A stretch of 64,000 nucleotides of DNA from Glycera tridactyla (taxonomy: Eukaryota), in assembly GCA_965644265.1 (NCBI GenBank), contig OZ286475.1:44888001-44952000 (forward strand), written 5' to 3'. The notes below the pieces were generated by a model. The model worked only from the letters and a program-made list of their open reading frames with translations. It ran no database searches and was not told the DNA's origin. Position 1 is the first letter of the stretch; each line of letters starts with the position of its first letter. The translations under genes were made by a program, and so were the position numbers. Shown piece by piece: positions 32,156-45,984 of this stretch.

Positions 32156-32333
32156 CAGTCGAACCTCTCCATAAAGACCGACTTTGGTCGCACCAAAAAG
32201 TGGTCTTTTAAGGGGGGTGGTCTCTATAGGGAGGTTATTTACTGTTGAAATTACTACCACGGTAGCAGCTCAGCATGGCCTTTACAGGGAGGTGGTCTTT
32301 ATAGAGAGGTGGTCTCTAGAGGAGGTTCGACTG
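32156..32333. mobile_element. pogo/Tc1-mariner-like MITE (178 bp) inserted in LINE B
   Basis: TIR CAGTCGAACCTC...GAGGTTCGACTG, preceded by TA and followed by CA (mutated TA TSD). Subterminal GGTGGTCTYTA repeats. Confidence 0.82.
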
Positions 32334-33683
32334 CATATGTTGTTAATGACATCATACTATTGAGAACATGTTTCAGTGCACTGATGGAGGAAGCAGTACG
32401 GACACATAAATTGGAGTCATTCCAGTAAAGTGCGCCCCTATGGCTGAAGTTTCTCTCTGCAAATCTCAGTCTGGTTCTAGGTACTTCAAGTTGTGGACCC
32501 TGCTCAAGAGCACTGATCAATCTGCTTCTAGCTCCTGCTGCACGTGGTCTTTTAACATTGAAAAGGGACTCAAGGGGTCGGGCAGTGCTTTCACTTCCAT
32601 ACATAGATCTGTACACTTCTATCACAGTATTTGCAGTACGTGTCTCCTTCGAAGTTTTGATACCTAGGGTTTCATGGAGATGAGTGGCTGAGTGAGACCA
32701 CCCACAGTTAGCTATAACACTGAGGCATCTATTTTGTGCTACCTGTAGCCTTTCAGAACATGTTTCAGTACACGCATCGTAGATATGGTCCACCTAAATA
32801 AACAACGGGTGGATAAGATACTTATAGAGATATAAAGCCATATGCATATCAATAGACGGGCGAATGTGGTAAAGGGCACATCGTCTAAAATTGACATTCT
32901 TGACAAGATAGTTCACATGGTTGCTAAAACTCAGATTGGAGACCAAGATAACTCCCAGATACTTGTAATGAGAGACCTGCCCCACCTGTTGCCCATTGTA
33001 TATGACAGCCAGGTCTCTACATGTGCCTAGACGTTGGTGGGTGCAAAAAAAACATTACACTTGACTTATTCAAATTCAGAGTCGATTTGCGAGAGGCAAA
33101 CCAGGTAGAGATACGTGCCAGGTCACAATTTAGATAGCGCTCCACATCATCGATTTGATTTGATTTTTTTGATTTGAAAAACTTTATTAAGCAAAGAACA
33201 TAATAAGAGACCTCGCAGGGTCATATGACATGTCAATGCTACAAACAATATCAACATAGGTACAAACATACAAGTGTGGGAGTGATGGTATAATCTTGTG
33301 TACCCCCGGTCGTCGGGAGTATGTTCAGTGGTGTGTATATCCAGTTCCATTTTCAATTAGACTGGGCCCAAGGAGAGATTCAGGAACTTCCTAAATTTCG
33401 GTATTGTTGATTCGATGGCCGTAGTGACTCATCAAAGATGTTCAGTATGGTCTCAGGAAGGGCCAAAAGTAAGATTTGGTGGGGTATTTGGACTCTATAT
33501 TCGCGCTCATGGCGACATCTGGTGGAAAACGCTGGTAATTCATGTAGCCTAGCCCACATGTTTTACCTGACATCTGGTGGTGCTTGCTCTCAGATGTTCC
33601 GAGCTACCGGTGGTCGGGCTCTATTTGTTGGATTCATGTTATGATAGATCTACTCTGACGGCCCGCTTTTGTCCAATTATGAT

Positions 33684-36503
33684 TCAATACAGAGTTGGAG
33701 CAATCTGGTGATCAGGCTCCAGTTTCGAATGTCGCTTATTTGTCCCATTTAGTGCGCTTCTCGTCAGTCTTGCCGGTTCGGGTTTGTTATTGGTCATAGT
33801 TTTCAGTCTCGTGGGGCATAGCCCATGTTTCATTTTGAATGTCTCGACCAGCGTACTTAAGTACCTGCTATTCTGAAGAGTGGGTGCCTTGAATTCATGT
33901 CTTAGTGCAGTGGCGGAATACCTCCAGTCACCGTGTGCTACCGTGTTCAGACAGCGATTTTGAGATACTTCTAGCTTATTGGCGTTTCTTTTTGTCGTTC
34001 CGTCATATATGAAATCTCCATAGCGATATAGAGGTAACAATAGTGATTTGAATAAGTAATGTGCCATGTTCTCACTAATTGACGGTCTTAGGTAGAGTAG
34101 TGCTCTCCTTCTCAGATTGACCTGGTTAATTATTACATCCACATGTTTATTGAAATTCAGCGCTGGGTCTAGTGTCACCCCCAGATACTTGTAGTGGTCT
34201 ACATTTTGTATTTGTATCCCGTCGCATGATAGATTTAGGTCGCGATTGCGTTTTAGTCCATTTCTGGTGCCTAATAGCATTGTACAAGACTTTGAGTGGT
34301 TTAGCGTTAGTTTCGAGTTTGCAAACCAGTCTGACAATGTTGTAATGTCCGCATTCATTGCCTGCTCAATTTCATCAGTATTTTTGGCTGAGAAGCATAT
34401 AGCCGTGTCATCCGCATAAAGGTATATTTCACTTCTTCTGATTGCATGCCAGATGTCATTTGTGTAAAGTATGAAGAGGAGTGGCCCTAGGATCGATCCT
34501 TGTGGCACCCCAAGCTTTACTTGTTCGTACGAGGAGACTTTATTGTTGATCTTGGTTGATTGAGTTCGATTTTGCAGATAAGATGAGAACCAGCTCATGC
34601 ATTTATTTCTAAAGCCTAGGATCTTCAGTTTGGCTATTAGATTTGTGTGGTCCACAGTATCGAAGGCCTTTTTCAGATCCAGGAAGAGCACCCCACTCAG
34701 ATTTCCTTCGTCTGCGTTTCTGTAGACCTTGTCCAGAAGGTTCACCAGGCACGAGCCAGTGGAGTGACTCTTCCTGAATCCGAATTGTGCCTCCGATAGA
34801 ATAGAGTGTTTTTCGACATATTCATAAGTCTGCGTGTGAACTATCCTTTCCAAGATTTTTCCCATAATTGGTAGAAGGGATATCGGTCTAAAGTTTCCGT
34901 AGTCGCTTGGGATGCCTTTTTTGTGAATTACAGTTACATTTGCCTTTTTCCATGCGTTTGGGAAAATTGAGTTTCTAATGCTCAGGTTGAACACATGTGT
35001 CAGCGGTATTGCAATCGTGGTGATGCAATCTTTTAACATTGATGACGTAATGCCATCATGGCCAGCTGATGGTGAATTGCTCATTGATTTTATCGCTTTG
35101 ACTGTGTCTGCTTCAGTGATTTCTGTCAGCTCAAAAACCGGTGGTCGGTTCTTTAGCTGAGGCATCGATTCCAATGGTCGGCATTTTATTTTGTCTGCCA
35201 GATTTTCCCCTACTTTCGCAAAGTATATATTCACTGAGTCAACTATTTCTTGTTCTGTCATGTCTTTTCCAGTTGGTACTGTTGGATTTCTTTCCGTGAG
35301 CGGCCAGATTGATTTAATTGTTTGCCACAGTTCTCTTGGATCATTTTTATATTTGTCTAGAGTAGTGCTAATGTACTCTCGCTTCAGATGCCTTTTTAGT
35401 CTACCTCTTTGCCTTATCGCTTCCTTTTCCAGTTCCAGATTTAGTGAGTTTGGGGCTCTTTTATATATCCTGCTTCTGTATTCACAGTAGTCCAGCATGG
35501 CTATGTATTCATTATTCACCCACGGTTGATTGTCACTAAAACATGGTAGCCATTTATATGGCGCTAGGTCATCTAGTATCTTGTTGAGAATATCTGTTAG
35601 TTTGTCCGTAGCTGTATTTATGTCTTTCTCATCTGTTATGCAGTTCCAGTCTATCGCATCTATCTTCTCTTTGAATTTTTCTTTGGTATAGTGTCGCAGA
35701 CTTCTGGTCCATTTATATTCTTTCGTCCGTCTCAATTTTCCGCGGTGTCTGCTCGTAAAGATTAGTTTATGGTCGCTGAGGCCTGGGTCCAGGCTACCTT
35801 TTAAATAGTAGTACTCTGGTCTATTCACTAAGAGGTGATCAATTAGTGTACTCGAGTGTTCTGTCGTCCTTGTTGGCGTCTCGATTAACTGTACCATGTC
35901 ATGTTGTTGTATATAGTCCAGGTATATTTTACTTGGTTTATCTTTGGCTAGATCTATGTTTAGGTCTCCGGCAATGATTATGTCCGCTGTTTTCGTAATC
36001 GTAGTGTCATTGGTGATTTTTGTTAACATTTTTATGAAGTTCTCGATATTGCCGTCAGGTGGCCTATAGGTACCAATTATGAGCGTTGGTCTGCAGTTTT
36101 CGAGATTTAACTTTACTGTTAGTGTTTCTATGTCCGGATTGCATATGGTTAAGTGGGGTATGCATTCTATATTATACTTGTCCGCATAATATAATATGAG
36201 TCCTCCTCCCGATTTCTTACCACTAGCGTCTGTCCTGTCTGCTCTATATGCCTTATAGTCTGCGATGCTAATTTCGTTGTCATTAATACTTTCATTCAAG
36301 AAGGTCTCGCTAATGCTAAGTATGTCAATCTTACTTCTGTGCAATAGAGTAGTCACTTCATCTATTTTTCTGGTTATGCTCCTAAGGTTGTAGGCACCAA
36401 TTACAATTCCTTTGATATTCGATAGACACCGTACACTGTATTCCATATCATCCAAGGGATTTTCGGTGGGGAAGGTATATTTGGTCTTTCTGGGTGCTGG
36501 CAT
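33684..36503 (-). CDS. LINE ORF2: APE-like endonuclease plus reverse transcriptase (939 aa)
   Basis: EN motifs N.RSI, SETFL, GDLNID, LIDH, SDH; RT motifs DLKKAFDTVDH, GVPQGSILGPLLF, YADD, YLG. The extreme C-terminus looks aberrant. Confidence 0.96.
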   Translation of the reverse strand: MPAPRKTKYTFPTENPLDDMEYSVRCLSNIKGIVIGAYNLRSITRKIDEVTTLLHRSKIDILSISETFLNESINDNEISIADYKAYRADRTDASGKKSGGGLILYYADKYNIECIPHLTICNPDIETLTVKLNLENCRPTLIIGTYRPPDGNIENFIKMLTKITNDTTITKTADIIIAGDLNIDLAKDKPSKIYLDYIQQHDMVQLIETPTRTTEHSSTLIDHLLVNRPEYYYLKGSLDPGLSDHKLIFTSRHRGKLRRTKEYKWTRSLRHYTKEKFKEKIDAIDWNCITDEKDINTATDKLTDILNKILDDLAPYKWLPCFSDNQPWVNNEYIAMLDYCEYRSRIYKRAPNSLNLELEKEAIRQRGRLKRHLKREYISTTLDKYKNDPRELWQTIKSIWPLTERNPTVPTGKDMTEQEIVDSVNIYFAKVGENLADKIKCRPLESMPQLKNRPPVFELTEITEADTVKAIKSMSNSPSAGHDGITSSMLKDCITTIAIPLTHVFNLSIRNSIFPNAWKKANVTVIHKKGIPSDYGNFRPISLLPIMGKILERIVHTQTYEYVEKHSILSEAQFGFRKSHSTGSCLVNLLDKVYRNADEGNLSGVLFLDLKKAFDTVDHTNLIAKLKILGFRNKCMSWFSSYLQNRTQSTKINNKVSSYEQVKLGVPQGSILGPLLFILYTNDIWHAIRRSEIYLYADDTAICFSAKNTDEIEQAMNADITTLSDWFANSKLTLNHSKSCTMLLGTRNGLKRNRDLNLSCDGIQIQNVDHYKYLGVTLDPALNFNKHVDVIINQVNLRRRALLYLRPSISENMAHYLFKSLLLPLYRYGDFIYDGTTKRNANKLEVSQNRCLNTVAHGDWRYSATALRHEFKAPTLQNSRYLSTLVETFKMKHGLCPTRLKTMTNNKPEPARLTRSALNGTNKRHSKLEPDHQIAPTLY

Positions 36504-37026
36504 ATTTCTGGTATGTTGGTGGGTCCGGGGTTATTCCAAGTTGAAGGGTATTGGGTTGGTATGATAGTAGGAATCCTAATTGGTGACGGTCAGTGTCGCT
36601 GGTTTGACAATTCGGGGGTGATACTTGGGGTGTTGATAATACTGGTGTGTTATTTTCTGTTAGTATTGGTGGTGAGGGGTGGTGAGGTGAGGTGGTGAGG
36701 TGGTGGTGGAGAGGTGGTGCTGGTGAGGTGGTGGAAGGTGAGGCGAGACGGGGGGAGCACAAATCGCTGAGATAGGTTGGCATAGATTTGTTGGTTCTAT
36801 TTCATTCCGATTCTGCAATAGCTTGATTTACTGTGCTATTGATCATTCATTTGTCTATTGTCTCTGAGAGAAAATCATCATGATGATTCTCCGAGAAAGA
36901 TTTTTCAAGCTTGATGGTGAGGTGGATCACATGAGATATGAATGTCTTTTTGTATATTATTTGAGGACTATTTCAATTCAGTAAATGAGACAGTATCATT
37001 TACCTGATGCAATCAAGACCCATGCT

Positions 37027-37237
37027 CGTATGTGATTACAAGGTGGTTGTTACATGGAAAGAAAAAGAAAAACATCAGAAATGTACAAGATGTACAATCA
37101 CATATATTGACTGTCGTGGTGACAATCAAGACCCACACGTGTATGTAATTACAAGGTGGTTGATACATAGAAAGAAAACGAAAAACATCAGAAATGTATA
37201 AGACTTACAATCACATATATTGACTGTCGTGGTGACA
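37027..37237. repeat. Tandem duplication, 2 x ~110 bp, in the LINE C spacer
   Basis: CGT(A/G)TG..ATTACAAGGTGGTTG...GACTGTCGTGGTGACA repeated. Confidence 0.85.
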
Positions 37238-38256
37238 GTAAATTTATTGTTGTTCTTAGAGAACCAACAGTCATCAACATATTTTTGCATCCTGTGTTAG
37301 GATGCATACACTGGTTTTTTTAATATCAATGCGCATCAAATACTAAGTTGAATAACGGGGTCAGGTTGGGTCGGTCATCGTGATGATGAATGTTCCCATG
37401 TGGAATCTTGGTTCAATATGATTTTGGATATTACTACTTTCGGTCATCCATGCGGTGTTGGAATCATGGCGGTACAATACATCATTAAGACCCAATCATT
37501 TACCAAGTTTTTAGTATGAGTCATCATAGTGATGAGTCAGTTTCAACATAGTAGAATTGCGATGGTTTCCGATGTGTCACATCTCATTCTCACAGCTAGG
37601 TGGCCGATGTAGGCATTGACATCTGGCGGCGTAGTATGCTGAGGTACGTTGAGGTAACCCCCCCCCCCTCCCCCTACTGTAGTTAATATCTTCTTGGGGA
37701 GCCATCGTGATGATGTTTCCGATTCCATATGAGTCTGATTCAGTATATTTCGTTATTTCCATTTCAGCTATAAATTTTCATGGTTGGTGTGCTGTGACAG
37801 CATTTTGTTGCGTGCGTGTGTCCTCGTGTACATATAATGTGTTCATGTTGGTGTATGTCCCATATATGGGGTGTTATAGTGTGTGCGTGTGTGCGTGTGT
37901 GCGCTTGAGCTTGTGTTTTCATGTCCCACTTGTGCACGTGTGTAGTCGCGTTTGTGTGTACATTTGTTACTCTGAGTTTCTGTATAAGCATGCTGGTTGT
38001 TGTCGTTGTAGTCAATACAGTATTTTCGGAGATCGATCATGTTCATATTCGGCCCGATTCATTGCTGGTATTAATTCGATGTCGACCTTGCTTTTGTTTC
38101 TGCGGTCGGAGTGAAACATAGTATATCCGGCAGTCTGACTTCTGAGTTTCTGAAGGTCCTGTGCGTGTTTCGAATGGCATGTACATTTCATTCTTGTCTG
38201 CTGGATGCGCGGGCGGGTGTGTGTTTACTCATGCATGTCTGTGTCGATGTGGTGCA

Positions 38257-38258
<2 letters not shown>

Positions 38259-38296
<38 letters not shown>
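38259..38296. repeat. (GT)n microsatellite
   Basis: Direct inspection. Confidence 0.97.
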
Positions 38297-38301
<5 letters not shown>

Positions 38302-38488
38302 ATGGGTATGTATAGGTATGTATGCATGCTTAATCTGTGGACTTGATTTGTGTGTCTGTACACGTTCAGTAATACGCAGGCTGGCAGTAGTGTGTGGAGG
38401 TGTGCGTGCACAGTGTATGGGCACTGCTTTGTTTTCCGCGATGTAATCGCGAGATGTGCGACAGCTATTTCACCGGGCAGTCTCACTA

Positions 38489-39427
38489 TTAGTTGGCAGC
38501 TTGAATTTTCCTCACTGCATAATTGTCCATTTTTTTTGGCAGTATGTCACGTAGAAGCACATGGCATCCCCATTTATCTAGATGTACGTTGTCATCCTTC
38601 AGGAAGCCTGGCACTAGATCATCGTAGTATCCTGTACTCGCTTTGGGTTTTTTTGTGTCATGGTAGAGAGAGCGTGTTTTCAGTTCTCTGACCTGGAACT
38701 CAGTTTTGAAATTATAGTGGAACTGGTAATCAAGTATGCTCACTAGTTTGCGTGAGTACCCATTCCACCATCTGCGGGGAAAGATTGGGACATAGCCCAG
38801 TGTGATATTTGGAAAAGCCATTTTAATCGATTGGACCAGGTCCTTTATACGGGGCACCAACTCATCCTCCCATTGGTTGAGATCATTCTCAATCGTGTCA
38901 ATCAATTCCGGCCCCTGTAGGTCTTCACGCAACGTGCGTTGGTGTGATTGAAAGTCTTCGATATCATTCCCCCCAACCATTAGAACAATGTAATCTGGAT
39001 CATATTCCGCATTCAGCAGTTGGTCCCATTGATTCCCATAATATTGTTTTTTGGCGTCACTCATCTCTTCTCCTCGCAGATTATCGAACAACTTCCAGAA
39101 TTTGCTGCCACTTACTCCCATAAACCATGATTCACACATGAAAGGTCTTACGACGCTGAAGTTGGGCATATTCATAATTCCATCCGATAAATGGATGGTT
39201 TGTGATGCACCCATGAAAACGATGTTGGGGCAGCCGAACGACTCCAGGATTTGACTCGCGCGGGCAAGCTTGTACGGTCCAGTCGGATATAGTCGCTGTT
39301 GTGCCAGATTTTCATCGCTTTCTGTGCAAACCTGAATAACAGATGAAACATGTATTGGTAATTTATGGTAGAGGGTGGCCAATTCAGTAGTTATGGGCAA
39401 TTCATTGATTAATGAAAATCGTTGGCT
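38489..39427 (-). CDS. SGNH/GDSL-type esterase domain (312-aa open frame) within LINE C
   Basis: Block I IVFMGAS, block II GVSG, block III YIVLMVGGND, block V DDNVHL; also VPIFPR. No ATG before block I. Confidence 0.8.
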   Translation of the reverse strand, partial: SQRFSLINELPITTELATLYHKLPIHVSSVIQVCTESDENLAQQRLYPTGPYKLARASQILESFGCPNIVFMGASQTIHLSDGIMNMPNFSVVRPFMCESWFMGVSGSKFWKLFDNLRGEEMSDAKKQYYGNQWDQLLNAEYDPDYIVLMVGGNDIEDFQSHQRTLREDLQGPELIDTIENDLNQWEDELVPRIKDLVQSIKMAFPNITLGYVPIFPRRWWNGYSRKLVSILDYQFHYNFKTEFQVRELKTRSLYHDTKKPKASTGYYDDLVPGFLKDDNVHLDKWGCHVLLRDILPKKMDNYAVRKIQAAN

Positions 39428-39983
39428 CTAGTAGAGATAGTTGCATACAGAAGGCAGGTCATTTCTCTTGTATTAACGAATGGGTCCTCAAGTAGGTTTT
39501 GGTTTGTCTATGCTTGTCCGGGGGAGAAGTTGGTATTGCACTGGTCAGCTTGCGGGTGTATACCTGCTGGGAAGTAGGGCCGGCGGGGGGGGGTGTGGCC
39601 GTGGGAGAGCGGCAATTATCATGGGCGATCATTGCTTGTTTTGCCGGTTGTGCGATGTTATTACCTGAGAGTTCTTGAGGACTCCTCACAACACTTTTAT
39701 ATTTAGGGCATATGAGTTGATAACCTTTAGTGGGTTTTCGCGATATTCATGGATGCGAGTGGCAAATAATATTCACAACTGTAGAGCTCGGTTGACAGCG
39801 GGTTGTTCTGCTTACAAACCAACGTCCATTTGACTTGTTTTGTAGGGTTCATTTTTCACATGTATCACACTAGAGAAATACAAAATTTTTGTTATTCAAG
39901 TGGTAACACTTACTCGTTCCGGATTGACATATCGTGTAAAGTTCCGGCGATATATGGGAACATAAGCCATGTTTTTCTGGTGT

Positions 39984-40442
39984 TTAGAATCGGAGTTGCC
40001 GTTGTGCTGCCCACGGTGGTCTTATGTTGTTGTGCCAGCTATTTGTGTTTAGGGGCGGTTGACCTAGTGGGGGGAATTCTGGGTTAAGCCACGGGTCGCC
40101 GTAGCTCACCTGCTGCATATGCATTAGTGGGCGTGGTTGCATGTGCGCCTGAATGGTGTTACGTGTAAATTGGGCATTTGGTATATCTGTCTGTCTGTTT
40201 ATTAAGCGGCCTTGGTATCTGTTTCTGCCTTGATAACTGCGTATACCCACGTTATTCTGTCTGTTTTCGTAGTGATACTGCCTATCTTTGTCAGTATTAT
40301 TCTCGGTTGTTTGTTGGTCTTCTTGACCTCGCTTAATAGCGCTATATGTGTCATCAGACTCCACCAGGATAGGGGTTTCACTGTTCGGCTTTAGCGCCCA
40401 GACAATGCCATCACTTGTCCAAACCTTAGTGTAAGCATTTTG
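39984..40442 (-). CDS. LINE C ORF1 C-terminal fragment (5'-truncated)
   Basis: Frame is open to the insertion junction: QNAYTKVWTSDGIVWALKPNSETPILVESDDTY resembles the WTxDG motif of LINE ORF1 C-terminal domains, followed by an N/Q/R/P-rich tail. Confidence 0.6.
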   Translation of the reverse strand, partial: QNAYTKVWTSDGIVWALKPNSETPILVESDDTYSAIKRGQEDQQTTENNTDKDRQYHYENRQNNVGIRSYQGRNRYQGRLINRQTDIPNAQFTRNTIQAHMQPRPLMHMQQVSYGDPWLNPEFPPLGQPPLNTNSWHNNIRPPWAAQRQLRF

Positions 40443-41489
40443 GCGAGAGATTCACCTGACACAAACAGGGCCATGTCATCGGCATAGAGAAATTGGGTTG
40501 TTACACTTAGACACGATTCTAGGGAATTCACATAGAGTATGAATAATAGCGGACCAAAAATCGATCCTTGCGGAACACCATGAGTGATGGGTGAGAAACT
40601 AGACAAGGATTGGCCCACATGCGTCGCTTGAGTGCAGCCTGATAAGTACGATGCTAACCAATTAAGACACTTGACACCAAATCCGAGTAGATCAAGTCTT
40701 GTTAAACCGTAAAAGGTTGAGTCTGAATGTCAAAAAGAATAAGGTAATGGCATTTGGTACGAGACAACGAATCAAGAAGTATCACAGGTGGAGACCTTTA
40801 GGTATCTGGGTATTGTCTTGGACAGTAATCTAACTTTTGCAGCTCATGCTGAGGACATCAGGGGAAGAACAATGGGAAGGGTGGGTGTCTTGGGCAGGCT
40901 CAGGGGAATATCAAGTCGGAATATTTCCCTGACCGTGTACAAGACACTCATCCTTCCTGTTTTCTATTACTGTGATATTGTCTACGACAATCTGAGCATG
41001 GCTGACACAAGTAAGTTGCGGAAAATCCAAAACAAAGCGTTCAGAATAATCACAAACCATATACCAGAACTTCTGCATTACATATTGATCTGAATATGCC
41101 ATACTTGGATTGTCGTAGAGAGTATCACACAATAATCCATGTGAACAAAATTCTATGTGGTGACCTTCACCCTCAGTACACTCCTCTGGCTTCGTACTTA
41201 ACAACGACCCATGAGTACCACACCAGATCACAGACTAAACAGTACTTGTCCTTCAATATGCCTAGGGACAAAGTTATGGAATACCTTTACCAACCGACAT
41301 GATGATTTTGAAAGCCTTGCTCCAAAGCTCTTCAAAAATCAGTTACTAAAGTTGAGAAGGTGTAAACTCATTGGTTAAGAAAGTGTACACTCTCAGCTCA
41401 CTTACCAAGGCAACCTCAAAATTATTTTATCATTATTTTAATTACCATGTGTTGGCTAGGCTTCCCTAATAGTTTGAGTTATAAGCAAC

Positions 41490-42085
41490 CGCCATTCCTC
41501 GTCTCCATTCGGGTCTTTCATATCTCATCATACCTCTAATTCATTCATTAACATTACTGATAATTTTCGCTTAATTCATTCATTATCACATGATGGTGTT
41601 GTGTGTGCCTTATTTGTAATTTGTGTGAATTTTTTTCGTCAATTTGAAAACGCCTCATTATGAGGTACATTTATTTTGTATACTGCATTGCTGTATATTT
41701 GTTGACGGAAGAAAAGAAAGTAACAAACAAACAAACAAACACATCCAACGCATTGCCGATAACTCCAAGCCTCATGCGGTATATCATGCGCCATTCCTCG
41801 TCTCCATTTTGGTCTTTCATATCTCATCATACCTCTAATTCATTCATTAACATTACTGATAATTTTCGCTTAATTCATTCATTATCACATGATGGTGTTG
41901 TGTGTGCCTTATTTGTAATTTGTGTGAATTTTTTTTCGTCAATTGGAAAACGCCTCATTATGAGGTACATTTATTCTGTATACTGCATTGCTGTATATTA
42001 GTTGACGAAAGAAAAGAAAGTAACAAACAAACAAACAAACACATCCAACGCATTGCCGATAACTCCAAGCCTCATGTGGTATATC
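41490..42085. repeat. Tandem duplication, 2 x ~300 bp, spanning the LINE A 3' junction
   Basis: Each unit contains LINE 3' UTR, the (CAAA)n tail and ~50 bp of host flank homologous to 6240-6285. Confidence 0.85.
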
Positions 42086-43284
42086 TGGTATTGGTTGCTA
42101 GAGAATTGTGACATGCAGAAAGTGCCATATCTCCATCACAATGATCTCATTGTCACACCACTCTTTCCAATTCTGCCTCTTCAACTCTTCAATAGAACTT
42201 ACAGTTCGTGTGCTTTGAGAATTTGTAATTTTGCCACCTTGTATCTAGAGATTCTTCCAATTGTACCATGCAGAGACTGCCCCCTCTCCTTAGTGATGTC
42301 CAAATGTCGACGCCTCTCTGCCTAATGCTGCCTCTCCCATTCGCCAATAAAGCTCCACCAATAGTGCTTCAAGGAGTTTGAGTTTGTTACACTGAGTTGG
42401 GTGCTCAGTATAGCCGCTCTTTGATGACGAAGCCACATGCCCCATAGGTTGCGAGCCACGTCATTATGAATCATCATGTGTTGATGATACTATCACCATT
42501 TTGATGACATCTTGATCTTGATGGGATTAGAGTATCCCTGATACTTCTTCTCTAGAGATATTTTTGTATCTAAGATTTGATGCACATATTGTATCATATC
42601 TCAATAGGAATTTGTCATGGTGATGTGATTAAACTATCATGGGGCCTGGGGAAGATTCATTGATCCATGATGCAATATTACGCTGCAATATAGATACATA
42701 GCCTTTAGAACAGGAAAGGTTATATGTAGGGTGAATATTTGGTATTGAAATGAAATTATAACATACCTTGGCCTGACCAAAGGGGACAGGTAAACATTTT
42801 AAGCCTTTGAAGCTTTGTTTTGCTTCACTGACCTCAAGCCGCCACTATCGATGTGAATGACCAACATTTAACAGCAGAACTATTCAGTACCATGTGTTAA
42901 AAAAGTCAGATCATGATTTGGCCGTGATGTACTTAGGGTGAAGAAATTATGTCATTCCAGTATTCAGGTCAAGGCATTATCACATATTCCCATGCTCTAC
43001 TACTAGTGATGATCAATAGCACAATCAAGGTTTTTGGGCATGAAATATGCTGATGCTTGTCATTCATTGAATGAAATTGTTTCCTCGCCGGAACACTGAA
43101 TGCTTTTTTTTATCGGAATGCATTTTGTGACATTTTTACTCTGACCACTCTGCAGCTGAGATTTATCCAATAATCTAAATAAGATCGCAAAGCAGCTGAA
43201 TGCAACCAATAATGCGGATTTTGAAGAAAAATAGGCATGAGAAAGGTGTAAAGCCGAGGCGATATAGAATTATTTCTAAATCAT

Positions 43285-45984
43285 TAGTCATCACATCGCT
43301 GGTGGCCATTGAAATTATAAGGAAGTTGTGCAGAAGAGGCAACACAGAATCAAATATTGATGTTGAAAATAGACAAATATCCAAATCATACAAATCCTCA
43401 TTAAAAACAAGCAATCTAAAACAAATCATAACAAGATACACCAGGGTTGCCATGGGGTCCAAGACTTTAATTGATCATGTTGTGGTAAACAATGTTGAAA
43501 TGTATCATCAAACAGGGGTGGTGGAGACAGGTCTATCTGATCATAGTATGATAATAGTCTGTAGAAAACGTCCACCGATTTCACGTAAAACTGAATATGT
43601 ATACTTTAAAGACTATAAAAACACCAATTTCAGTGAAATCAAGAAAGGCCTATTAGAACATGACTGGACTGAATTTTATAATACCACAGACACGGATACT
43701 TGCACCAATATACTGCACCAGACAATAGGTGAGATGCTTGACCGTCATGTCTCTCTAAAGAGATATCGAGTCAATGAAAATTGGCCCAAATGGCTAAATG
43801 GGGAATATATGGACCTCATTAGGGATAGAGAGCATGCAAGCAGAAATTTCAAACTCACGAATACTGAAGAAAATAGACTCTTGAAGAAACATTTAGAAAA
43901 ACAATGTAAAAAACTAAAAAAGAAATTGCAGAAACAGTACATAGAGAATGCCTTTGTTGAACATTCGTCAGATTCAAGAAAACTTTGGGAAACGATAAAT
44001 AGTTTTTGGGGCAAAGGAAAGGGGAGCACAAATATAGTGAAAATAGGAGATTGTTCAGATAATATGGAAATAGCAACAAAGCTTAATAATTATTTTTGCA
44101 CAGTAGGAGTGAAATTGAGCAATCAAATCAGAAATGATGGCATTGATGCACTAAATAACTTCCCTTGTAATTTAAGAAATACATTGACACTTTATGAAAC
44201 GAATATCACAACAGTCATAAATCTAATAGGCAAACTCTCACCATCAAAATCAGGCAAGGACGATGGTTTACCAACTAAAGTGATAAAGGAATGCTCAGAA
44301 GAACTGTCTCCACTTCTTTGTCATCTGTATAATGTTAGTATCTGTAATGGTTACTTTCCAACAAAATGGAGGTCAGCAACTGTGATCCCACTTCTTAAGG
44401 AAGGTAATCGCTCATTGGAGTCCAATTACAGACCAATCAGTCTGCTGTGTACCATAAGCAAAATACTAGAGAAAATAATACATTCTCAGGTTGCCCTATA
44501 TTTTGAGACCCATGGTCTACTGTGTCAGGAACAGACAGGGTTAAGGGAGGGTTGCTCCTCTGGCACATGTCTACTGGAATTTCTCGACAAACTTTATTTA
44601 AATATAGAATCAAGAAAGACCAGTGGAGTGCTCTTCCTGGACCTCAAGAAGGCTTTCGACACGGTGGATCATGGGTTGCTTCTACAAAAACTAGAGAGAT
44701 ATGGAGCTGATCCCATATGTATTTCCTGGTTCGAGAGCTATCTATCGGATAGACGTAACCAGGTGAAAGTCAATGGAGTGACATCAGAGGAAGAATTCAT
44801 ACGCTGTGGGGTGCCACAAGGATCCACGCTGGGACCTTTATTATTTTCGATTTATGTGAACGATATAACATACCATATGAAGGGTCCCAGTGTGAATCTA
44901 TTTGCGGATGATACCGCTATCTTGGTTGAAGACACATCCCCCCAGAATTTGAAGAGGAAATTAGAAAATTCACTATTAGAGGTTTCAACTTGGCTAAAAA
45001 GAAATAAATTAAGTCTTAATACCAAAAAGACAAAGATCATGATATTTGGAAGTAAACAGAGTATATCGAAATGTGATTTTAATATATCGCTCGGATCAGA
45101 TATCATATCCCAAGAACAAACTTTCAAATATCTGGGGGTGGTGTTGGATGGCCAATTGAAATTCAATCATCATGCTGAACATATCAGGAAGAAAACGATT
45201 GTTAGGACGGGGGTACTGGGGTGACTCAGGGACTACTTAGTCAAGGCACGTCCCTGATGTTATACCGGTCCCTTGTCCTACCATTGTTTGACTATTGTGA
45301 CATTGTCTACGACAGTCTGGGACTGGCAGATGCAACAAAGCTACAAAGAGTCCAAAATAAAGCATTGAGAATAATTACAAAAAGTCCACCAAGAACAAGA
45401 TCTATTGAAGTGCATCAGCAAGTTGAACTGCCTTTCCTTGACTGTCGTAGACAGTACCACACCCTATTACAAAATAATGATGGGAGAGGTACACCATCAG
45501 TACACACCACTATGTGCTTATCCACCAGTATCCCATTATAATATCCGTTCGAAAGAGAAACCATTTCTTGATGTCTATGTGCCTCGTACCAAACAGGCAG
45601 AGGGTTCCTTTCGTTTTAGAGGACCCAATATTTGGAATAATTACTTGAGAAACCATGTAGATGCAACATTTTGCGAAACCGAAAGCTTTAAACGACAACT
45701 TAGCCATTTTGTCAAAATCTGATTGAATACTAGTAAGAAAAATAGAACAATATATCGTTGGAATATACTGAATCAGTTTATTGAAATAATATGTCAAATA
45801 TACAATATCATCATCATATAATCATAAATAACAACCCATTCATCTCATTACTAACATTCATTGAAAGTATGTAACAATTGGTATTTGTGTTGATTATCGT
45901 CGGACCGGGAAAGCCCCAATATGATGGGGCAAATGTTTATATACATCTGTATGACGATTTAAAATAAAGAATTATACTATATAC
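43285..45984 (+). mobile_element. LINE D (CR1/L2 group, truncated within EN); ORF2 nearly intact
   Basis: TLIDHV, SDH, DLKKAFDTVDH, GVPQGSTLGPLLF, FADD, YLG. In-frame TGA at 45222-45224 and a frameshift near 45470. 14-bp direct repeat TATTTCTAAATCAT at 43271-43284 and 45985-45998. Confidence 0.92.

Follow-up and report, generated by a model that had tools for sequence, protein, structure and literature searches.

A three-gene LINE family of Glycera tridactyla and the predicted intron conserved in its esterase gene

The element, its genes, and the split esterase

The stretch of DNA analyzed here (the window) comprises 64,000 nucleotides of contig OZ286475.1 from Glycera tridactyla (GenBank assembly GCA_965644265.1, positions 44,888,001 to 44,952,000) and carries on its minus strand a copy of a long interspersed nuclear element (LINE). 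It is a broken copy from a family with three genes, namely an L1-like open reading frame 1 (ORF1), a separate gene for an SGNH-type esterase, and an ORF2 encoding an endonuclease and a reverse transcriptase (RT), and the esterase gene is divided by a predicted spliceosomal intron that is conserved in relatives. Feature coordinates are given in Table 1. Dispersed copies, 5' truncation, and a common 3' end with a stem-loop and a short-repeat tail identify the family as LINEs, and ORF2 matched the Pfam families RVT_1, Exo_endo_phos, and Exo_endo_phos_2, as in LINEs with an apurinic (AP) endonuclease. The window copy was recognized as 5'-truncated because a sister copy on contig C18, 97% identical to it, runs on upstream in the ORF1 frame. 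It interrupts an older RT fragment, and an earlier preliminary description of the window had correctly placed the whole segment that it dealt with inside this insertion; both junctions show a few bases of microhomology, and a target-site duplication is not clear. The family presumably belongs to the CR1 group, whose named clades are CR1, L2, Daphne, Crack, and Kiri, judging from the lack of RNase H and the repeat tail; the RT trees covered the family and public RTs without clade names.

Relatives were collected by a protein search of the genome, which returned 127 esterase matches of 37-100% identity; 122 of them (82 plus 40 further loci) were examined. Counts from the searches are lower bounds, and one false call of a mini-exon (L272) was dropped. 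In the window, the G-x-S, G, G-x-N-D, and D-x-x-H blocks of exon 2 are intact, and the predicted spliced product is 299 aa long. The catalytic residues (Ser, Gly, Asn, and Asp-His of SGNH blocks I, II, III, and V) were invariant in all 38 aligned exon-2 products, and exon 2 was intact in 37 of the 43 other clusters at ~40-80% identity. A structure model of the esterase had the SGNH fold (predicted local distance difference test score, 93.8) and Foldseek matches to GDSL/SGNH structures; Pfam scores were below the curated cut-off. By its blocks and modeled fold the protein is an SGNH hydrolase, for which hydrolase activity is predicted. Exon 1, a mini-exon found by its peptide motif alone, was present in 102 of the 122 relatives (74/82 and 28/40), with its AUG exactly 57 nt upstream of the donor in 72 of 74 loci.

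The conserved donor of the intron (CGA/GTAAGT at 39914/39913) lies past the ORF1 stop, and homology begins sharply at the conserved acceptor (CAG/G at 39332/39331). AG was found at this acceptor in 113 relatives (80/82 and 33/40), directly before a Val/Glu/Asp/Lys-Cys start; the seven of the 40 further loci without it were truncated inside the exon (2), point-mutated (2), or shifted by small indels (3). The acceptor logo for 44 clusters, formed at 85% nucleotide identity, showed a pyrimidine tract and YAG/G, with an in-frame TAG stop in nine clusters. In 39/39 clusters and in 73/74 loci, GT comes directly after exon 1, usually as part of GTAAGT or GTGAGT; donor position +5 was G in 39/39 clusters, +6 was T in 35/39, and -1 was never G (39/39). 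The GTRAGT donor, the pyrimidine tract, the YAG acceptor, and the frame restored by removal are those of a U2-type intron. Read-through was excluded, since the intron lengths of relatives (284-1533 nt) include all three phases and, without splicing, the esterase frame was broken in 74/74 loci. The 122 loci included no intron-less copy of this clade, and none turned up in two sets of 26 and 19 pattern matches from the whole genome (overlapping with these loci). Comparison with Rfam gave one weak match, judged to be due to chance. On these signals the intron is a real one, predicted to be spliceosomal and spliced in the sense orientation, that belongs to the element and is retained in genomic copies; the preliminary description, which had proposed such an intron before the body of the esterase, was right in this respect. 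It is barely conceivable that the splice signals are relics or products of chance and that the esterase is no longer made, given the intact exon 2, the invariant catalytic residues, and splice signals that stayed fixed while the sequence and length of the intron diverged.

The 5' end of U1 small nuclear RNA (snRNA) is canonical in this genome. Trans-splicing and non-canonical donors were considered and dismissed as unnecessary, because the cis donor and U1 are both canonical. At G000:C4:77045576-77171102, no fewer than 42 U1 snRNA genes were noted in a tandem array with a spacing of ~2.1 kb.

Full-length relatives encode an ORF1 of ~750-980 aa with its own stop and a coiled coil-RRM-CTD (C-terminal domain) organization, and the short ORF1 of the preliminary description is a consequence of 5' truncation. 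In a structure model of the relatives' ORF1, the coiled coil, RRM, and CTD fold is that of type II (L1-like) ORF1, and the top 10 Foldseek hits were all human L1 ORF1p (E 1e-5 to 5e-4); Pfam Transposase_22 was not matched by ORF1 among the 25 families shown. The C-terminal domain had a weak match to Pfam Baculo_FP_2nd in 19/30 members of the ORF1 alignment.

The preliminary description had drawn the intron differently, with removal of 682 nt joining ORF1 to a start-less esterase. The letters had been read correctly: CAG/GTGAGC with GT at 40109 and TAG at 39430-39428 are present in the window, the gap between them is 682 nt, the join is in frame, and a frame of 312 codons opens at 39427, with its first Met at residue 72. 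At the donor (40104..40112), however, the sister copy reads GCGAGC despite its 97% identity, and two further relatives have ATG or TAT. The acceptor lies inside the true intron, 96 nt upstream of the conserved site, and AG was found at its offset in 4/82 loci, including the window and the sister copy, which is a chance frequency. The extra 32 residues at the start of the 312-codon frame are not conserved and were open in 8/82 loci. The true intron is 582 nt long, and both of its sites differ from those proposed; the conserved exon with the esterase AUG (at 39970) and the conserved donor lie between the two proposed sites, and ORF1 ends in its own stop both in the intron-bearing clade and in the intron-less clade described below. 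One intron-less locus, L246 (G000:C7:36461609), has a frame of 1255 codons that spans ORF1 and the esterase; there, either the stop has been lost or the fusion is real. With unconserved splice sites and an AUG-led esterase, the ORF1-esterase fusion was rejected as a feature of the family and has a negligible probability.

Table 1. Positions in the window of the parts of the element
Feature	Positions	Strand	Remarks
LINE copy, 5'-truncated, inside older RT fragment	33152..40445	minus	sister copy extends further 5'
ORF1 C-terminal remnant	39984..40445	minus	end of CTD and low-complexity tail, own stop
Esterase exon 1 (predicted)	39914..39970	minus	AUG at 39970 plus 19 codons (MAYVPIYRRNFTRYVNPER), 13 nt past ORF1 stop
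Intron (predicted)	39332..39913	minus	phase 0, GT-AG, 582 nt, GTAAGT ... TTCAG, 9 in-frame stops
Esterase exon 2 (predicted)	38489..39331	minus	280 codons, starts VCTES; SGNH hydrolase
AUG-rich spacer, esterase to ORF2	36504..38488	minus	2 kb
3' arm of predicted long-range stem	36750..36763	minus	TTTGTGCTCCCCCC; 5' partner lost by truncation
AUG-free stretch, 3' arm to ORF2 start	36504..36749	minus	predicted shunt landing and scanning zone; by eye
ORF2, AP endonuclease and RT	33684..36503	minus	own conserved AUG; ~230 nt deleted near end relative to sister copy
3' end	33152..33222	minus	GACCC...GGTC stem-loop 33222-33209, AATAAA 33188-33183, TCAAA-type tail

Older RT fragments at window positions 40446-41093 and 32299-33151 flank the element, one of them split by it, as in nested LINE insertions, and another LINE ORF2 fragment at 43200-45224 (plus strand) fell outside the family in the RT tree. 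The spacer contains a duplicated unit of ~115 nt at 36990-37237, and larger tandem repeats occur upstream of the element at 41480-42100. Elsewhere in the genome, at L012-L013 (G000:C42:78353107-78361227), a family member is adjoined by a long terminal repeat (LTR)-type element with pol and an env-like ORF.

The intron-less sister clade and public proteins

The genome also contains a second clade (136 matches, 40 of which were fetched as long regions), in which ORF1, esterase, and ORF2 are arranged as in the first clade but the esterase frame is unbroken. In 38 of the 40 regions, as counted by a script, the 19-residue lead known from exon 1, with its Pro-Ile-Tyr/Phe motif, runs directly into the start of exon 2 with equal spacing; of the other two, one has Ile-Phe and shows the continuity, and one has a stop just upstream. 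The continuous esterase of the sister clade therefore fixes both boundaries of the intron to the codon. Because the esterase occupies the same place in both clades, its origin as a separate nested insertion, which the preliminary description had kept in view as an alternative, was rejected. The clade (L208-L247) is large and young-looking, and a 5' upstream ORF (uORF) ending Glu-stop is conserved in it; early codons of ORF1 also showed partial complementarity to the region before ORF2.

In a tree of the endonuclease and RT, the two clades (18 and 28 members) were sisters, with FastTree support of 0.994 and 1.0 and a joint support of 0.995. They were likewise sisters in the esterase tree, where the nearest outgroup is continuous, and this outgroup fits gain of the intron equally well as loss. 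A word-seeded search for homologues with the single esterase found none, a profile search returned 208, and the protein-cluster Atlas contained generic SGNH clusters only. Among 35 classifiable public proteins, 15 had the continuous start and 14 a hydrophobic-then-Gln start that is typical of an unspliced acceptor; with both types of start represented, the family extends beyond this genome.

Proposed expression of three genes from one RNA

ORF2 lies behind a spacer that measures 0.5-3.6 kb across the family and holds 10-86 AUGs, and a second intron or acceptor conserved in this spacer was not found. At 44-266 nt before the ORF2 AUG, a perfect complement of 9-14 nt to a motif at the 5' end was present in 29/30 full-length loci, and the remaining locus, L052, carries the complement too once re-anchored. 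Compensatory pairs were seen at three core positions of the predicted stem over 21 lineages (G-C 6/A-U 14, C-G 14/U-A 7, and A-U 11/G-C 8). In 23/25 lineages, a 5' uORF of 2-9 codons has its end 10-20 nt upstream of the 5' arm. Below the 3' arm, 23 AUGs were seen against 142 expected, whereas CAT (108 vs 124) and GAT were near expectation, and the landing zone of the C18 sister copy has 0 AUG in 248 nt. A short 5' ORF near the base of the stem, paired arms, and an AUG-poor landing zone are thus all present in relatives, which matches the shunt layout of cauliflower mosaic virus (CaMV), and ORF2 is probably reached by a uORF-dependent ribosome shunt. A local hairpin with arms that vary yet remain paired was seen by eye ~10-45 nt before the ORF2 AUG in L063-L073, L088, L091, L103, L111, L113, and L126.

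A nucleotide motif, RG[CT]GATA, occurs in the N-terminal part of ORF1 ~155-187 nt past the 5' stem arm in relatives L051-L126, and also in the intron-less L015; its distance from the 5' end is nearly fixed, and it may be a downstream promoter element. Neither a consistent pairing partner for this motif nor consistent pairing of the 5' end with the intron was found. An Env-like splice from the start of ORF1 was considered on account of a donor-like AAG/GTGAGC near the ORF1 AUG in one subgroup; it belongs to the RG[CT]GATA motif and was rejected as a donor because the bases before the motif are not GT in other subgroups and because the true exon had been found.

The interpretation that we favor, to which a probability of roughly 0.8 is assigned, is that the family is a three-gene LINE whose esterase, split by the conserved intron, is likely spliced from part of the RNA to give the 299-aa enzyme, the unspliced RNA likely serving as the template. 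The preliminary description had also assigned unspliced RNA to the genome and spliced RNA to the esterase; this division fits all of the sequence data, and what did not stand is the identification of the spliced product as ORF1-esterase. In such a scheme, ribosomes scanning from the cap would translate ORF1 and then reinitiate at the nearby esterase AUG, as they would in the intron-less sister clade. The whole enzyme would come only from spliced RNA, the uORF and the 9-14 bp stem would shunt ribosomes to ORF2, and new insertions would be copied from the unspliced RNA. Splicing, shunting, and the reason why spliced copies fail to insert are all inferred from sequence. By analogy with ZfL2-1, lipids or membranes would be the targets of the esterase.

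The esterase AUG lies 1-64 nt after the ORF1 stop, with no AUG between the two in 27/30 cases, as reinitiation expects. This layout, which the intron-less clade shares without an intron, speaks against a second view of the same intron, in which the esterase would have a shorter transcript to itself, initiated close to the end of ORF1, with promoter or enhancer elements perhaps held in the intron, as in Penelope. Such a transcript would not be copied, because without the 5' stem arm it cannot make ORF2 in cis. It would account for CAGCTG at a fixed 163-179 nt past the donor in ten lineages of one subgroup with introns of 284-710 nt (L063, L064, L066, L069, L072, L088, L103, L111, L113, and L126), for the enrichment of CAGCTG, TCGCCC, and GTCATG in introns relative to shuffles, and for the strong context of the esterase start (-3 A and +4 G each in 31/39). 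A poly(A) signal after the esterase was, however, not enriched (12 vs 9 of 36), and we consider a separate transcript unlikely.

Because LINEs are copied through RNA, loss of their sense-strand introns is expected; some algal retroelements carry introns. That the intron of this family survives through partial splicing, with spliced RNA a poor template, is preferred to the alternatives, though tentatively and at somewhat less than even odds. G is never found at donor position -1, and with an exon junction 58-121 nt beyond the stop of ORF1, spliced RNA would be marked for decay, the distance required in mammals being 50-55 nt. A further alternative is that spliced full-length RNA does retrotranspose but that later rounds depend on an RNA or DNA element within the intron, which would make intron-less copies rare dead ends and the intron-less sister clade the descendant of one loss that escaped. 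The conserved intron motifs, the sister relation of the clades, and the distant public proteins with hydrophobic-then-Gln starts agree with this, as do the dead-end spliced integrated retrotransposed elements (SpIREs) of L1 (PMC5860796). Dead copies should nevertheless be visible, and none occurred among the 122 relatives; the continuous outgroup of the esterase tree is equally in keeping with intron gain. An intron essential in this sense is considered improbable, more so than the separate transcript.

Several observations weigh against the splicing and shunting interpretation. The predicted stem is short for a loop of 5-8 kb, and in 6/21 lineages the best control window equaled or surpassed it in duplex energy. 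The uORF overlaps a probable internal promoter, so its conservation may be partly at the level of DNA, and the intron-less clade has the uORF and the depletion of AUG (12 vs 79) but a weak, variable complement. For the branch point, YTRAY was found in about half of the clusters at variable distance, without a control and with no strict consensus. Continuous public proteins are no proof of splicing, because they may come from intron-less elements; in addition, P0153 (a continuous esterase whose tail is long and of low complexity) and P0182 (an ORF2) each have a longest contig of 10385 nt and may share one long RNA, which hints at long RNAs with a continuous esterase elsewhere. The decay argument borrows a mammalian rule, and the minimum of 58 nt follows from the layout anyway. 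Finally, the window copy, being truncated, is incapable of activity.

Taken further, the family might run a virus-like three-gene program from one RNA, in which regulated splicing would switch on the esterase, a shunt past two genes would lead to ORF2, and spliced RNA would be excluded from retrotransposition, with the intron-less sister lineage thriving beside it in one genome; this is a possibility that we hold with some reserve. A coding intron kept over at least 39 diverged subfamilies would mean that template RNA and message RNA can be kept apart in a LINE, and how this is done can be asked with the intron-less sister clade as a built-in control. The covarying stem between the 5' end and ORF2 offers a concrete, mutable answer for the translation of ORF2 behind kilobases of AUG-rich spacer. 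For annotation, calling ORFs without splicing misses or truncates the esterase gene.

Comparison with known systems

A LINE with a conserved coding intron, with an L1-like ORF1 accompanied by a separate esterase, or with a shunt to ORF2 was not found in the open literature, Repbase and subscription journals lying outside this search. In the esterase LINEs (ZfL2-1, vertebrate CR1/L2, and RTEX), an SGNH esterase with a Ser-Asp-His triad is likewise encoded upstream of an endonuclease-RT ORF2 (PMC3905857, PMC4120745, PMC13343379), but there the esterase is ORF1 itself, whereas here it is a separate gene with an intron, beside an L1-like RRM ORF1. The family is accordingly not one of the type IV LINEs with an esterase ORF1, its esterase being an AUG-led gene behind an RRM-type ORF1 with its own stop. 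None of the esterase ORF1s in Repbase was described as having an RRM, and the two may be mutually exclusive (PMC3905857); the present family has both an esterase and an L1-like RNA-binding ORF1, a combination suggested in print as redundant or exclusive. CR1/L2 elements with a type II (Tnp22, L1-like) ORF1 share the coiled coil-RRM-CTD organization, the endonuclease-RT ORF2, and the short-repeat tail, but are described with two ORFs only (PMC4120745) against the three genes found here, and neither "intron" nor "splic" occurs in the main text of that paper.

Copies of Penelope-like elements also retain spliceosomal introns, for a reason given as unknown (PMC8557442); those elements have a GIY-YIG nuclease and pseudo-LTRs, and the introns detailed in that text are in the 5' untranslated region, whereas the intron described here is a coding intron of an AP-endonuclease LINE. 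Splicing inside a LINE RNA is known from the human L1 SpIREs, where it is cryptic, deletes sequence that is required, and gives rise to dead copies with no intron (PMC5860796); in the present family, by contrast, splicing would be needed to make a protein, and the 122 loci include no intron-less copy. In bdelloid LTR elements with a GDSL ORF3, the esterase is also an extra third gene, and ORF3s typically come from spliced messages, but ORF3 follows pol in an LTR element (PMC5408684), whereas the esterase here stands between ORF1 and ORF2 of a LINE and has its own AUG exon.

Translation of LINE ORF2 has been reviewed as reinitiation or unknown (PMC3894237, PMC5902531). In the shunts of CaMV and of RTBV (rice tungro bacilliform virus), a short 5' ORF likewise ends just before a stem whose other arm precedes the downstream ORF, and RTBV uses inefficient splicing for one gene (PMC2241666). 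The viral stems enclose a leader of ~480 nt (PMC2241666), whereas the predicted 9-14 bp stem of this family would loop out two whole genes. In its predicted expression the element resembles a retrovirus or pararetrovirus, but by membership it is a LINE.

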